Counted from the first letter of the stretch, positions 1,864 through 16,638 are shown. The stretch: DNA of 27,968 bases from Candidatus Micrarchaeota archaeon (GCA_964643685.1 CAZXTN010000002.1:1-27968); one strand, 5' to 3'. The notes: generated by a model from the sequence alone, not told the origin. Program-made: numbers and translations.

Positions 1864-1969
1864 AGCCTCAGGCCGGGTTTGAACCGGCGACCTCCTGTTT
1901 ACGAGACAGGCGCACTGCCACTTCACCTACCTTGAATTTTTTTTCAACAATAGACTGTGCTACTGAGGC
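1864..1969 (-). tRNA. tRNA-Thr(CGT) with a 34-nt D-loop intron at 15/16 (1921-1954)
   Basis: GCCTCAG/CTGAGGC acceptor, GCAC/GTGC D-stem, CCTGT-CT-CGT-AA-ACAGG, GCCGG-TTCAAAC-CCGGC, U73; removing the intron gives a 72-nt cloverleaf; relaxed BHB. Confidence 0.93.
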
Positions 1970-2015
1970 TTTTTCAATTCAATTTATATACACTGCAATA
2001 TTTAAAAATAAATCA

Positions 2016-2933
2016 ATGGTAATTCAAGTTATTTTTTTGTTCATAATAGGGCTCTTGTTTCTTTTAAAAGGAGCTGAGAAGTTAATTGATTCTTCAATAA
2101 AGATAGCAAGGCATTTTGGCATAAGCGAGTTAGTTATTGGCTTGACTTTAATTAGTTTTGGAACTTCTTTACCTGAATTTGCAATCGGAACAATTTCAGC
2201 TTTGCAAGGAGAGCCTGTAATTTCAATTGCTAATGTAATTGGAAGCAACATTTATAACTTACTGGTTTTAACTGCTTTGATTGGTTTTGTCACTACTTAT
2301 CATTTCAAGACAATTAACATTCTACAAAGGGATATTGTCTGGTTGTTGTTAACTGCAATTTGGCTTACTGCTGTTGCTTTTAATGGAACAATTTCAGTTG
2401 GTGTTGGCGTGCTGTTTATCAGCTCTTATTTAATTTATATTTATTACTTATACGACACTGGGGAGAAAGTCAAAACAAGAAAAAGAGATGGTGTTACTTG
2501 GAAAACTTACTTAGCTCTTGCAGTGAGCATTATCTTAATTTATTTAGGCGCAGAGTTAACAGTAACAAATGCAATTGAACTTGCTAAACTGCTTCATATA
2601 AGTGAGTGGGCAATATCAGCTGGTTTAATAGGAGCTGGAACAGGATTGCCTGAAACAGCAACAGCAGTTGTTGCTTTGAGAAAAAAGAAGCTGAAAATAG
2701 GAGTAGGTAATTTAATAGGAAGCAACATATTCAACATATTAATTGTTGCAGGAGTAACCAGCTTAATAACTCCAATGCAAGTTGATTTTGCAAGCCATTT
2801 TTACAGCTTCTTTTTCTTAATGATTTCATCTGTATTAATTGCATTAATTGCAATAAGAGGAAGTATTAGGAAAAAAACAGCCATGGTTTCAATAACTTTA
2901 TACTTGATTTACTTATGGCTGTTATTCAAATAA
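2016..2933 (+). CDS. Na+/Ca2+ (cation:Ca2+) exchanger, YrbG/CaCA family
   Basis: Two alpha-repeats, GTSLPE…GSNIYN and GTGLPE…GSNIFN, ~10 TM; start moved to ATG 2016 because the longer ORF overlaps tRNA-Thr. Confidence 0.92.
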   Translation: MVIQVIFLFIIGLLFLLKGAEKLIDSSIKIARHFGISELVIGLTLISFGTSLPEFAIGTISALQGEPVISIANVIGSNIYNLLVLTALIGFVTTYHFKTINILQRDIVWLLLTAIWLTAVAFNGTISVGVGVLFISSYLIYIYYLYDTGEKVKTRKRDGVTWKTYLALAVSIILIYLGAELTVTNAIELAKLLHISEWAISAGLIGAGTGLPETATAVVALRKKKLKIGVGNLIGSNIFNILIVAGVTSLITPMQVDFASHFYSFFFLMISSVLIALIAIRGSIRKKTAMVSITLYLIYLWLLFK

Positions 2934-2942
2934 GGTAATGAA

Positions 2943-3302
2943 ATGAGAGTTAAAGTTTTGTCAATCAGGCAGCCTTATGTTGAGTGGATTGTAAGCGGTA
3001 AAAAGAAGATTGAACTTAGGACTTGGAACACTAACTTCAGGGGAGAGTTTTTCATCCACGCAAGCGGAAAACATGACAAGCTTCCAACTGGCGTAATAAT
3101 TGGAAAAGCAGAATTAGTTGACGTTAAAAAATACGAAAATGAAGAGGAGTTCTTGAAAGACAAGAAAAAGCATTTGTCTAATAAATGGCTTTCGCCTGGT
3201 TCAAAACGCCCCTCGCAATACGGCTTTGTTTTAAAAAACGCGCAGAAAATAAAGCCGATTAAGGTAAAGGGAAAACTTGGCTTCTGGAATTACGAATTAT
3301 AA
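2943..3302 (+). CDS. ASCH domain protein
   Basis: LSIRQPY…I-x-SGKK-x-IELR-x-W…RG-x-x-x-IHAS, G-x-IIG, C-terminal KGKLGFW. Confidence 0.9.
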   Translation: MRVKVLSIRQPYVEWIVSGKKKIELRTWNTNFRGEFFIHASGKHDKLPTGVIIGKAELVDVKKYENEEEFLKDKKKHLSNKWLSPGSKRPSQYGFVLKNAQKIKPIKVKGKLGFWNYEL

Positions 3303-3325
3303 AATTATTTTTAAAAAGAAGTAAG

Positions 3326-3539
3326 CGCTGGCGGCAGGATTTTCATGAAGAGTTGCGCTAACCCGTTAAAAGGCGATTAAGCGAAGCGCACATCGCCTGC
3401 AGGGATAGAAGGGGCGCAGCCCCCTCTTTTTGAACCTGCGAGTCCAATGGACAGCGGTTTTCGAGACCGCCGCATTAACCATTGCAGCCGAAGCCCTAAA
3501 CAGTTGATTTGTTTGGGCTGGGGACTCTGCCACGCCAGC
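3326..3539 (-). tRNA. tRNA-Ser(CGA) with two non-canonical introns: 15/16 (3482-3524, 43 nt) and 59/60 (3340-3428, 89 nt)
   Basis: GCTGGCG/CGCCAGC acceptor, G73, GCGGT-CT-CGA-AA-ACCGC, long variable arm GTCC-ATT-GGAC; central helices GCAG/CTGC and TTCA/TGAA with AA^T 3' bulges; spliced length 82 nt. Confidence 0.92.
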
Positions 3540-3661
3540 ATTTCACAATCAATTGAAGCAGTTTGTGAATAATAATGTATTTATAGATGCGTATTCATAA
3601 AAATTAATGCCAATAATTCTATTTTAAGTTAATAAAAGTTGAAAAGTAGGTGAATTCCAAT

Positions 3662-4846
3662 ATGAAAAGCTTGATTAAAAACGCGATAAGTGAAAGCAAA
3701 CATGGCTTCACAGGAACAGGTAAAAATCTGATTATTGCAGATGACGATGCTCATAAAACAGTCAGGAAAAAAACTGTTGAAATAAAGCAAAGCAGTATCG
3801 GAGGAATGACTGACGAGGAATTAAAAGCTGCTTTGGAACAATCAATGGCAAAAGTAAGAGTAGTTGGAGCAGGAGGATCAGGAAACAACACAATGAAAAG
3901 AATGAAAGAAGTTGGAATTCACGGAGCAGAATTAATTGCAATTAACACTGACGTTCAACACTTACTGATAACACCAGCTGACAAAAAAGTTTTGATAGGA
4001 AAGCAAATAACAAACGGATTAGGAGCAGGAAGCAATCCAGAAGTAGGTGAAGCAGCTGCCAAAGAAAGCTTGAAAGACTTGTCAGCAGTTCTCACAGACA
4101 GCGACTTGGTTTTCGTAACATGCGGTATGGGTGGTGGAACAGGAACAGGCTCAGCTCCAATAGTTGCGCAAGTTGCAAGAGACATCGGCGCTTTAAGCGT
4201 TGGAATAGTCACGCTGCCATTCTCAGTTGAAGGAAAAAGAAGAATGCAAAACGCATTAACAGGACTAAGAAAATTAAAAAAAGAATGCGATACAGTAATA
4301 GTAATACCAAATGACAAGCTGCTTGAAATCGTACCTGAACTGCCTTTAAACGCTGCTTTCAAAGTAGCTGACGAAGTGCTTACAAACGCAGTGAAAGGAA
4401 TCACTGAATTAATCACAAAGCCAGGTTTAGTGAACCTTGACTTTGCTGATGTAAAAACAATTTTAAGCGAAGGTGGCTCTGCAATGATTGGACTTGGCGA
4501 GTCAAGCAATACAAGTTCAAGCGAGTCAAGGGCAATGGAAGCAGTAGAAGAAGCATTAAACTCTCCACTATTAGACGTTGACATAAGCGAAGCAAACAAA
4601 GCATTAATTAATGTTGTCGGCGGAAGCGACATGACCCTAAGAGAAGCTGAAATAATTTGTGAAGCAGTTGCAGCTAAAATCAGCGACAATGCCCACATTA
4701 TTTGGGGAGCAATGATCGATGACTCTCTTCCAAAAAACAGCATCAATGCAATGGTGCTCGTTGCAGGTGGAAGAATCCCTTACCTTGACATGGACAAAGG
4801 TGAAATGAAATCAGCTGCAGACGAGCTTGAAATAGACTACATTTAA
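3662..4846 (+). CDS. ftsZ: Cell division protein FtsZ
   Basis: GAGGSGNN, AINTD, GMGGGTGTG tubulin signature, NLDFADV; AGGTGA before ATG 3662; archaeal ftsZ-secE-spt5 order. Confidence 0.97.
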   Translation: MKSLIKNAISESKHGFTGTGKNLIIADDDAHKTVRKKTVEIKQSSIGGMTDEELKAALEQSMAKVRVVGAGGSGNNTMKRMKEVGIHGAELIAINTDVQHLLITPADKKVLIGKQITNGLGAGSNPEVGEAAAKESLKDLSAVLTDSDLVFVTCGMGGGTGTGSAPIVAQVARDIGALSVGIVTLPFSVEGKRRMQNALTGLRKLKKECDTVIVIPNDKLLEIVPELPLNAAFKVADEVLTNAVKGITELITKPGLVNLDFADVKTILSEGGSAMIGLGESSNTSSSESRAMEAVEEALNSPLLDVDISEANKALINVVGGSDMTLREAEIICEAVAAKISDNAHIIWGAMIDDSLPKNSINAMVLVAGGRIPYLDMDKGEMKSAADELEIDYI

Positions 4847-15861: not shown

Positions 15862-16084
15862 TTCAAAAAACCTCCGAGTAAACGTAAGATGAAATTTTCT
15901 CAACTGCTTTTAATTTTTCTGAAACTAAATGTTTAAAAAGCTTTGAGTGTATAATTTTTATGCTTACTTATATTTAAATACATTATCTTTTAAGTGCTGT
16001 ATATTTTTTTAAGATAACAGCAAGAAACGCTTAAAAAGAACAAAATAAAAAAAAGCATTATTGAAAAGACTAACATTAACCAGC

Positions 16085-16201
16085 GCTCCGATCTTCTAGT
16101 TCGGTCAAGGATGCAGGCCTTTCAAAGTGATTTGCTTTTGGAAACAGAAGCAAGCGAACTGAAGTTAGCCTGCGACCCGGGTTCAAATCCCGGTCGGAGC
16201 A
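16085..16201 (+). tRNA. tRNA-Glu(TTC) with a 42-nt canonical 37/38 intron (16125-16166)
   Basis: GCTCCGA/TCGGAGC acceptor, CAGGC-CT-TTC-A^A-GCCTG, CCGGG-TTCAAAT-CCCGG; strict BHB with CTTT/GAAG central helix. Confidence 0.94.
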
Positions 16202-16250
16202 TGGATTGTAAAAAAACCTGAGCACTTCAGCAAAGCTGAATGTGGTCACA

Positions 16251-16312
16251 TTTGATGCAAACTTTGTTAAAGTTTGCTGAAGCTCCCGGTCGGAGCATGT
16301 ATTGTAAAAAAA
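16251..16312 (+). repeat. 30-nt hairpin element followed by a duplicate of the tRNA-Glu 3' end
   Basis: 16284-16312 matches 16188-16216 at 28/29; element 16251-16280 is shared with 16671-16700. Confidence 0.9.
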
Positions 16313-16354
16313 GTTTAAATGAGGTAGAATAGAATTATAGGATGTGAATGTTGA

Positions 16355-16465
16355 ATGAAAAGCAAGCCAAGGAAATGGAAGAAGAAGAATAAGATGCGTT
16401 GGAAGTGGGTTAAGAAAAGAATGCGCAGGGAAAAGAGAAAGAGGAGAAAGAGAGCAGGCAAGTAA
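16355..16465 (+). CDS. rpl41e: Ribosomal protein eL41/eS32, long archaeal form, 36 aa; not in the ORF track
   Basis: Manual translation MKSKPRKWKKKNKMRWKWVKKRMRREKRKRRKRAGK contains the MRWKW-x-KKR-x-RR-x-KRKRR core. Confidence 0.88.
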   Translation: MKSKPRKWKKKNKMRWKWVKKRMRREKRKRRKRAGK

Positions 16466-16522
16466 AGCCTTGTTCTTTTTAATTTGCTTCCTTTTTTTCA
16501 TGTTTTTATTAAAAAGGTATTT

Positions 16523-16638
16523 GCAGGGGTACCTGAGTGGTCTAAAGGGCCGGGCTTAGGAACGCATTGCCTTGTTTTTAATGCGTGAAGAAACCCGGTG
16601 GCTTAGTGCCTTCGAGGGTTCGAATCCCTTCCCCTGCA
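16523..16638 (+). tRNA. tRNA-Leu(TAG) with a 32-nt canonical 37/38 intron (16561-16592)
   Basis: GCAGGGG/CCCCTGC acceptor, A73, CCGGG-CT-TAG-G^A-CCCGG, variable arm GGC-TTAGT-GCC, GAGGG-TTCGAAT-CCCTT. Confidence 0.94.

Follow-up and report, generated by a model that had tools for sequence, protein, structure and literature searches.

The stretch of DNA described here, referred to as the window, comprises the first 27,968 bases of contig C2 (CAZXTN010000002.1) from a Candidatus Micrarchaeota archaeon (GCA_964643685.1), whose assembly amounts to 695 kb in 12 contigs, with 36% G+C and 92% completeness. According to Pfam, its proteins are of archaeal housekeeping type: FtsZ, Spt5, the ribosomal proteins L11, L1, L10 and P1, ThiI, CysRS, aIF1A, aIF2-beta and a LigT-like phosphoesterase. 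The window also contains five tRNA genes, Thr(CGU), Ser(CGA), Cys(GCA), Glu(UUC) and Leu(UAG), which are interrupted by eight introns in total. These introns occupy only three positions, namely 15/16 (three introns), 37/38 (three) and 59/60 (two). The exons of each gene are colinear within 106-234 nt, so that none of the five belongs to the split or permuted tRNA genes. In all probability, these are ordinary but unusually dense bulge-helix-bulge (BHB) introns in five functional tRNA genes of a small archaeon of DPANN type. In the following, G000 denotes the assembly with the window, G001 and similar labels denote relatives of the same class, and C1, C2, C4, C6 and C8 are contigs of G000.

Ordinary gene finders largely pass these genes over. 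ARAGORN detects none of the five at default settings and two of them, Glu and Leu, with its intron option, the Leu anticodon being misplaced. The Rfam tRNA model matches Leu (49.5 bits), Glu (43.9 bits) and, partially, Thr (32.7 bits, model positions 6-65, limited to 1870-1922), and it never matches the Ser and Cys genes of the window. The gene models were obtained by splicing GC-rich intergenic islands in silico by coordinates and passing the products to ARAGORN, which recognised a full-length tRNA in each case (71-84 nt), namely Thr(cgt), Ser(cga), Cys(gca), Glu(ttc) and Leu(tag). The cloverleaf stems of all five spliced products are intact, and the discriminators fit the identities, with U73 in Thr and Cys and G73 in Ser.

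A custom cloverleaf finder, which allows one insert in each of the D-, anticodon- and T-loops and whose candidates were confirmed by ARAGORN, found no sixth tRNA gene in the window. Applied to the genome, it gave 48 clusters, against three weak ones in a reversed-genome control. Seven clusters were dropped by judgement, leaving 41 gene models. Six of those dropped have three long "introns" each and weak BHBs, like the three reversed-genome matches; one of the six, at 9314-9689 on the minus strand of the window, sits within a Pfam-supported open reading frame (ORF). The seventh (C8:23263) is a redundant contig copy of C1:99052. The number 41 is a lower bound, as Val(CAC) and Ser(UGA), both listed by ARAGORN -i, were missed by the custom finder.

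The splice sites were checked by writing out the pairing explicitly in every register that yields the same product, of which each intron has one to four. For all eight introns, exactly one register has three or four pairs in the central 4-bp helix (H) between two 3-nt bulges; among shifted control registers, 29 of 170 have at least three pairs. The five introns at 37/38 and 59/60 form both outer helices as well (hBHBh'), and the three at 15/16 are of the HBh' type, with a good inner helix and a weak outer one. These D-loop introns all begin after A14-G15, and the bases before their 3' bulge pair with D-stem bases 10-13. Those of Ser and Cys have the ends TCCC...GGCTGYAA in common, and those of Thr and Cys a TTGAA...TTCAA hairpin.

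An earlier note on this DNA had described the same five genes, eight introns and three positions, the cloverleaves left after removal of the inserts, the BHB boundaries, and the start, pairing and shared ends and cores of the D-loop introns. It had also expected standard annotation to overlook the Thr, Ser and Cys genes. All of this is confirmed, and the intron positions are indeed known from Thermoproteales and ARMAN-2 (PMC3239211, PMC4033280).

None of the five window anticodons is found more than once among the 41 gene models, and the genome encodes both RtcB (C1:128779-130077, 559.7 bits) and the splicing endonuclease EndA. Sole genes for their anticodons, in a genome with both enzymes, imply working genes and not pseudogenes, and the five genes are almost certainly expressed and spliced. 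It is highly improbable that they are decaying pseudogenes broken by insertions, with the real tRNAs encoded elsewhere. The 92% completeness of the assembly and the failure of ARAGORN and the Rfam model to find the genes would suit such an explanation, but splicing of the exons gives perfect cloverleaves, the 41 models include no further gene for any of the five anticodons, and 80% of the tRNA genes of the genome are of the same build. Moreover, tRNA-Cys keeps its place upstream of cysS in nine relatives.

EndA is encoded at C1:20853-21362 as a protein of 170 aa with both Pfam domains (PF01974, 115.8 bits; PF02778, 37.9 bits). Its residues 3-170 align with the alpha4 enzyme of M. jannaschii (1a79) with an E-value of 7e-33, the only difference in length being one of 1-2 residues within the N-terminal part. 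It is without the 5-residue insert that the ARMAN-2 enzyme has beside the catalytic His, and its residues 75-170 align without gaps to M. jannaschii EndA, the sole comparison for a C-terminal insert. No second EndA-like frame was found in the assembly at E-values up to 10. Among the 31 genomes of the class, 27 have an EndA match, which is present in exactly one copy in 26 of the 27; the frames mostly measure 170-215 residues, and one is cut to 123 at a contig start. The host is therefore not one of the (alpha-beta)2 or epsilon2 type with a specific loop, and its EndA is a single alpha-type enzyme. In this respect the earlier note, which had held that such introns need an (alpha-beta)2 or epsilon2 endonuclease, was mistaken.

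The window is typical of its genome in the density of its introns. Of the 41 gene models, 33 are interrupted, by 51 introns: 19 at 59/60, 19 at 37/38, 12 in the D-loop and one elsewhere in the T-loop. The D-loop introns lie in 12 of the 41 genes, and 4 of the 12 are at 15/16. Among relatives, the number of introns in orthologous genes varies. In the tRNA-Cys genes upstream of cysS it ranges from zero (G029, G007, G013 and one of two G009 genes) through one (G003, G002, G005 and the second G009 gene) and two (G011, D-loop and 37/38) to three (G004). The syntenic Thr(CGU) and Ser(CGA) genes near ftsZ in G003 have a 37/38 intron only, and Ser(CGA) is intronless in G011 and G007. Glu and Leu are both intronless in G018 and G025, and Glu only in G010; both have a 37/38 intron in G001, G004, G007 and G022.

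The intron sequences themselves recur in different tRNAs. The 59/60 intron of Cys is one of a family whose first 24 nt are nearly invariant and which is found at 59/60 of seven G000 tRNA genes of differing identity; the other members are Ile(UAU), Leu(CAG), Trp, His, Leu(CAA) and, in shortened form, Ala(UGC). It is 79% identical to the His intron, and the family is also present in tRNA-Cys of G004. The 59/60 intron of Ser resembles the 37/38 intron of tRNA-Glu in G001, which represents another genus; this homology is seen by gapped alignment (64 nt aligned with a score of 56, the highest of 500 shuffles being 21), and a blastn-short search with the eight window introns returned paralogues for the Cys 59/60 intron only. 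A further pattern is common to the D-loop introns of Met, Arg(CCU) and Thr(UGU) and to those of tRNA-Cys in G011 and G004. Introns and spacers (the stretches behind tRNA genes described below) gave nothing in Rfam searches in E-value mode. As intron sequences recur in different tRNAs and positions while orthologues vary, the turnover must be recent, and the earlier note, which had inferred an active intron expansion in this lineage, is supported as regards active turnover. In their distribution over different tRNAs, positions and genera, the introns resemble mobile sequences of a short, non-autonomous kind.

Three of the five genes have a second peculiarity. Behind Thr, Glu and Leu, the 3' end of the gene is repeated exactly (26, 16 and 16 nt), at distances of 102, 96 and 79 nt from the first copy, respectively. 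The spacers between the copies measure 63-82 nt in the window and 63-150 nt genome-wide. Over 34 nt, the GC-rich module of the Thr spacer has 91% identity with the 59/60 intron of tRNA-Gln(UUG) (C1:166576-166609), and it also matches the His spacer. A part of the Glu spacer shares 92% identity over 53 nt with the one behind tRNA-Gly(GCC) (C4:866-918), and the Leu spacer is 94% identical over 49 nt to that behind tRNA-Leu(UAA) (C1:110427-110475). In Glu, the four nucleotides situated 2 nt 5' of the second copy pair 4/4 with T-loop bases 54-57 in the 59/60 register, and the second copy of Leu likewise has H 4/4 in this register.

Such copies are frequent in the genome. A copy of the last 13 nt occurs within 400 nt downstream in 15 of the 41 genes, one of them across a run of N and to be discounted, and a copy of the first 13 nt occurs upstream in 3 of the 41; no gene has a copy on the wrong side. 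Among 17 downstream copies, eight (Glu and Leu included, Thr not) have H 4/4 at the exact 59/60 register, compared with 1 of 170 shifted controls. In Thr and in Leu, a T7 run follows the second copy only. Of 14 genes, 6 have an oligo-T run of at least five behind the last copy and 1 has such a run behind the first, a weak indication that it is the last copy which occupies the original gene end. Relatives have the same architecture in Glu of G001, Leu of G004, Leu of G018 (with at least three copies) and Thr of G003. The hairpin module of Glu and Leu, searched as a pattern in the 31 class genomes, was found in G000 only (six sites), besides one doubtful site in G010. The pattern is too strict, as a diverged copy precedes the Leu 3'-exon copy in G018.

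It is extremely improbable that these repeats and inserts arose as errors in the assembly of a metagenome bin. Contigs of X1, the probable source run, end at the repeats, and one genome-wide duplicate (C4:40457) crosses a run of N, as might be expected of artefacts. However, X1 contigs cover the Thr gene and the whole Ser and Cys genes without differences, and a contig of the independent run X4 covers 16461-16768, with the Leu gene, its spacer and the second copy, at zero differences. The relatives with the same architecture come from separate assemblies.

The splicing of these genes can be pictured as follows. Each gene would be transcribed as a single precursor, in which the single alpha-type EndA, presumably a homotetramer, would cut in the two 3-nt bulges flanking the 4-bp helix, and RtcB would join the exons. 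The exon half of the helix would consist of anticodon-loop bases 32-35 at 37/38, of the near-universal T-loop bases 54-57 at 59/60, and of D-stem bases 10-13 at 15/16. Reuse of only three sites would then follow from the exon half being a sequence common to many tRNAs, and for the same reason one intron family could work in many tRNAs.

The most likely origin of the 3'-exon copies behind Thr, Glu and Leu is that the same mobile intron elements left them as footprints. Their layout comprises an intact exon copy with a short trailer, then an intron-type module, then the second exon copy. In Glu and Leu, the mature tRNA could arise with or without splicing at 59/60, which would make this intron an optional one. 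An alternative, which we regard as unlikely, is that the downstream copies are ordinary attachment-site (att) scars of integrative plasmids or viruses of the SSV1 or pNOB8 type that recombined with the part of the tRNA genes running from the T-loop to the 3' end and were later deleted to ~60-150 nt, the copies being unrelated to splicing. Like att sites, the direct repeats begin within the T-loop or T-stem and extend past the tRNA 3' end, the T-loop itself being included in the Thr copy, the G001 Glu copy and the G018 Leu copy, and integration has been proposed as a source of tRNA fragments and introns by Sugahara 2012 (PMC3293823). The window does contain repeats of this kind, but no integrase was found, Phage_integrase (PF00589) being without a match in the genome, and the spacers are merely of the lengths given above. 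Furthermore, the same short modules stand behind tRNAs that differ in sequence, so that a separate att site would be required for each, and one module forms part of a true intron, that of Gln(UUG). The pairing of 8 of the 17 copies in the splicing register also argues against scars unrelated to splicing.

Taking the copies as footprints of introns, a further step is possible, although we hold it to be somewhat less likely than not. The 59/60 and D-loop introns may be miniature non-autonomous mobile elements, built of a few conserved hairpin modules, that insert at the DNA level with duplication of the terminal exon, and the genes of the window may represent successive stages of this process. 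Glu and Leu, with an intact upstream exon copy and a splice-competent second copy, would be at the stage of the optional intron. Ser and Cys, without an upstream copy, would have an obligatory intron, and Thr would have a copy with a drifted junction.

Several points weigh against the picture of dense, mobile BHB introns given here. Unconstrained minimum free energy (MFE) folds of the pre-tRNAs by ViennaRNA show the exact 3-4-3 BHB in none of the eight introns, and in Glu the MFE helix is shifted by one base relative to the BHB register; the BHB assignment thus rests on the explicit register check. Alpha4 enzymes are reported to cut HBh' introns poorly. The three 15/16 introns are of this type, yet EndA is insert-free relative to the M. 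jannaschii enzyme near the catalytic His and in the C-terminal half. As the assembly is 92% complete, a second EndA subunit or an intronless isodecoder could be missing from it. Splicing itself is inferred from the gene models, the BHB registers and the presence of the two enzymes. The second copy of Thr begins inside the T-stem and forms no BHB at 59/60 (H 2/4), and it therefore fits an att-type duplication as well as an intron. Finally, LAGLIDADG_3, Phage_integrase and RVT_1 have no match in the genome, which leaves the presumed mobility without a known engine.

Table 1. Interrupted tRNA genes of the window, their introns, downstream exon copies and associated features (window positions unless a contig is given; H, pairs in the central helix; h and h', pairs in the outer helices).
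Feature	Position	Length	Strand	Remarks
tRNA-Thr(CGU)	1969..1864		-	exon 1 1955-1969, exon 2 1864-1920
Thr 15/16 intron	1921-1954	34 nt	-	HBh' type: H 3/4, h' 5/5
Thr spacer	1785-1860		-	within 1759..1863; GC-rich module 1805-1838
Thr second copy	1759-1784		-	exact 26 nt of gene end and trailer; first copy 1861-1886
tRNA-Ser(CGA)	3539..3326		-	exons 3525-3539, 3429-3481, 3326-3339; ARAGORN Ser(cga), 82 nt spliced
Ser 15/16 intron	3482-3524	43 nt	-	BHB H 4/4
Ser 59/60 intron	3340-3428	89 nt	-	BHB H 4/4, h 5/5, h' 4/5
tRNA-Cys(GCA)	13153-13386		+	three introns; ARAGORN Cys(gca), 71 nt spliced
Cys 15/16 intron	13168-13208	41 nt	+	BHB H 4/4
Cys 37/38 intron	13230-13267	38 nt	+	BHB H 3/4
Cys 59/60 intron	13289-13372	84 nt	+	BHB H 3/4
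cysS	13420-14802		+	directly 3' of tRNA-Cys; CysRS by Pfam
tRNA-Glu(UUC)	16085-16201		+	Rfam tRNA 43.9 bits; ARAGORN Glu(ttc), 75 nt spliced
Glu 37/38 intron	16125-16166	42 nt	+	BHB H 4/4, h 6/6
Glu spacer and second copy	16202..16312		+	hairpin module 16251-16277, then 3'-exon copy and trailer; 16284-16299 repeats 16188-16203 exactly, with a single mismatch over ~29 nt
tRNA-Leu(UAG)	16523-16638		+	Rfam tRNA 49.5 bits; ARAGORN Leu(tag), 84 nt spliced
Leu 37/38 intron	16561-16592	32 nt	+	BHB H 3/4, h and h' complete
Leu spacer and second copy	16639..16718		+	two hairpins, module 16671-16697; copy 16703-16718 = 16624-16639
Palindromic hairpin	16257-16277, 16677-16697; C1:110455, 110548, 112670, 220626; C4:904
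Palindromic hairpin, other strand	C1:112953, 113965; C6:15604, 17392, 36655

A palindromic hairpin with a 9-bp stem, a 3-nt loop and a TTTGAT or TTAAAT flank occurs almost only beside tRNA 3' ends (Table 1). In one arrangement, the hairpin precedes a second 3'-exon copy by 5-6 nt; in the other, it follows a tRNA gene at a distance of 2 nt, and its flank then has the opposite orientation. It may be a protein-binding site or a gene-end signal.

Copies of 5' exons have been noted as well. Upstream of tRNA-Met (C1:112426-112516) and of tRNA-Gln(UUG) (C1:166248-166403), each 5'-exon copy is followed by the same module, TGCCCCTTTCTTTT...AAAGAAAG, so that 5'-exon duplications have a shared element of their own. 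In locus L002 (contig C12 of G004, 1705-1910), three tandem 94-nt units each open with the first ~18-22 nt of tRNA-Leu(UAG) and continue with the reverse complement of a GC-rich module which, in G000, stands before 3'-exon copies. Both kinds of terminal exon are thus bordered by one and the same module, in mirrored orientation.

Some further observations concern the surroundings of these genes. Near the tRNA genes, at 11855-12388 on the minus strand of the window, there is a gene for a LigT-like 2H phosphoesterase (2'-5' RNA ligase family); its product may be relevant to RNA end healing and is not needed for RtcB-type splicing. Between Glu and Leu, at 16355-16465 on the plus strand, there is a Lys/Arg-rich ORF of 36 codons, whose DNA is 74-84% conserved in relatives of the same family and order. 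It resembles ribosomal protein L41e, but a Pfam search with it gave no match. The pairing of tRNA-Cys with cysS is kept in at least nine relatives, and the nearest CysRS matches mix archaeal records with many bacterial records of Patescibacteria type, which hints at horizontal transfer. Contig C8 repeats a stretch of C1:75-101 kb, with which it shares its direct repeats and the tRNA-Arg(UCG) gene. At its end, C8 carries an intronless Gly(CCC), and C1 has Gly(CCC) with a 32-nt T-loop insert on the opposite strand, a difference that could reflect a strain variant or assembly redundancy. The short 59/60 intron (43 nt) of Ala(UGC), C2:39766-39935, carries CUGAUGAG and GAAAC motifs; these recall a hammerhead core or a C/D box, a likeness that we take to be probably due to chance.

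Many elements of this picture are already published: the 59/60 intron in tRNA-Cys(GCA), tRNAs with three introns, intron transposition, D-loop HBh' introns, and alpha4 EndA together with disrupted tRNAs in DPANN. Thermoproteales have multiple-intron tRNA genes and "intron transposition" (Sugahara 2008, Fujishima 2010, as summarised in PMC4033280). The present genome resembles them in that a gene may have as many as three BHB introns, that positions are non-canonical and that introns of different tRNA species are similar. It differs in being a small genome of DPANN type and in its single alpha-type EndA, as opposed to their (alpha-beta)2 enzyme with a Crenarchaea-specific loop, as well as in its three hot-spot positions and the many genes with a duplicated terminal exon.

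ARMAN-2 (Ca. Micrarchaeum) has a 13-nt 59/60 intron in pre-tRNA-Cys(GCA) and T-loop introns in pre-tRNA-Pro (Fujishima 2011, PMC3239211). Common to both are Cys-GCA, the 59/60 site, the DPANN host and the high share of disrupted tRNA genes. The EndA of ARMAN-2, however, is a three-unit epsilon2 enzyme with a specific loop, in contrast to the single alpha-type found here, where the 59/60 introns measure 84-89 nt with full hBHBh' and 33 of 41 genes are interrupted, compared with 56% in ARMAN-2.

In Kaneta 2018 (PMC5829648), alpha4-type EndAs of DPANN are described as going with more tRNA gene disruption, which is ascribed to a C-terminal "L3" loop. The combination of a single alpha-type EndA with many non-canonical and multiple introns agrees with that description. 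The present enzyme may or may not have the L3 loop, its alignment with M. jannaschii EndA, the only one made for this region, showing no insert there. The same source describes a D-loop HBh' intron in pre-tRNA-Glu(UUC) of Methanopyrus kandleri, whose EndA is without a specific loop. The relaxed HBh' D-loop intron and an EndA lacking a specific loop are shared with the present case, but M. kandleri, whose enzyme is an (alpha-beta)2 one, has few such introns, compared with D-loop introns in 12 of 41 genes here.

With regard to the duplicated exons, the loci share with integration of the SSV1 or pNOB8 type a reconstituted tRNA gene and a direct repeat of its terminal part. They differ in the size of the inserts (63-150 nt), the lack of a recombinase gene, the BHB-competent junction and the modules common to true introns. 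Duplicated terminal exons around intron-type modules were not found in the literature searched, whose coverage of subscription journals was poor. The nearest concept is the Caldiarchaeum model, which links intron gain to tRNA-targeting integration (Sugahara 2012, PMC3293823).

For annotation, a share of about 80% interrupted tRNA genes means that inferences on completeness and codon usage are wrong for such DPANN bins without multi-intron models. The density of interrupted tRNA genes is among the highest and goes with a plain single-subunit EndA, which supports the published suggestion that subunit architecture does not set the substrate range of the enzyme. The genome also offers many loci with an intron-type module between identical copies of a terminal exon, and homologous modules are true introns elsewhere in the same genome. 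These loci make the gain and loss of BHB introns testable. If the window genes do represent stages in the insertion of miniature mobile elements, they would be the first structural intermediates for archaeal BHB intron gain or loss, and a concrete target would be the protein that recognises the palindromic hairpin beside tRNA 3' ends.

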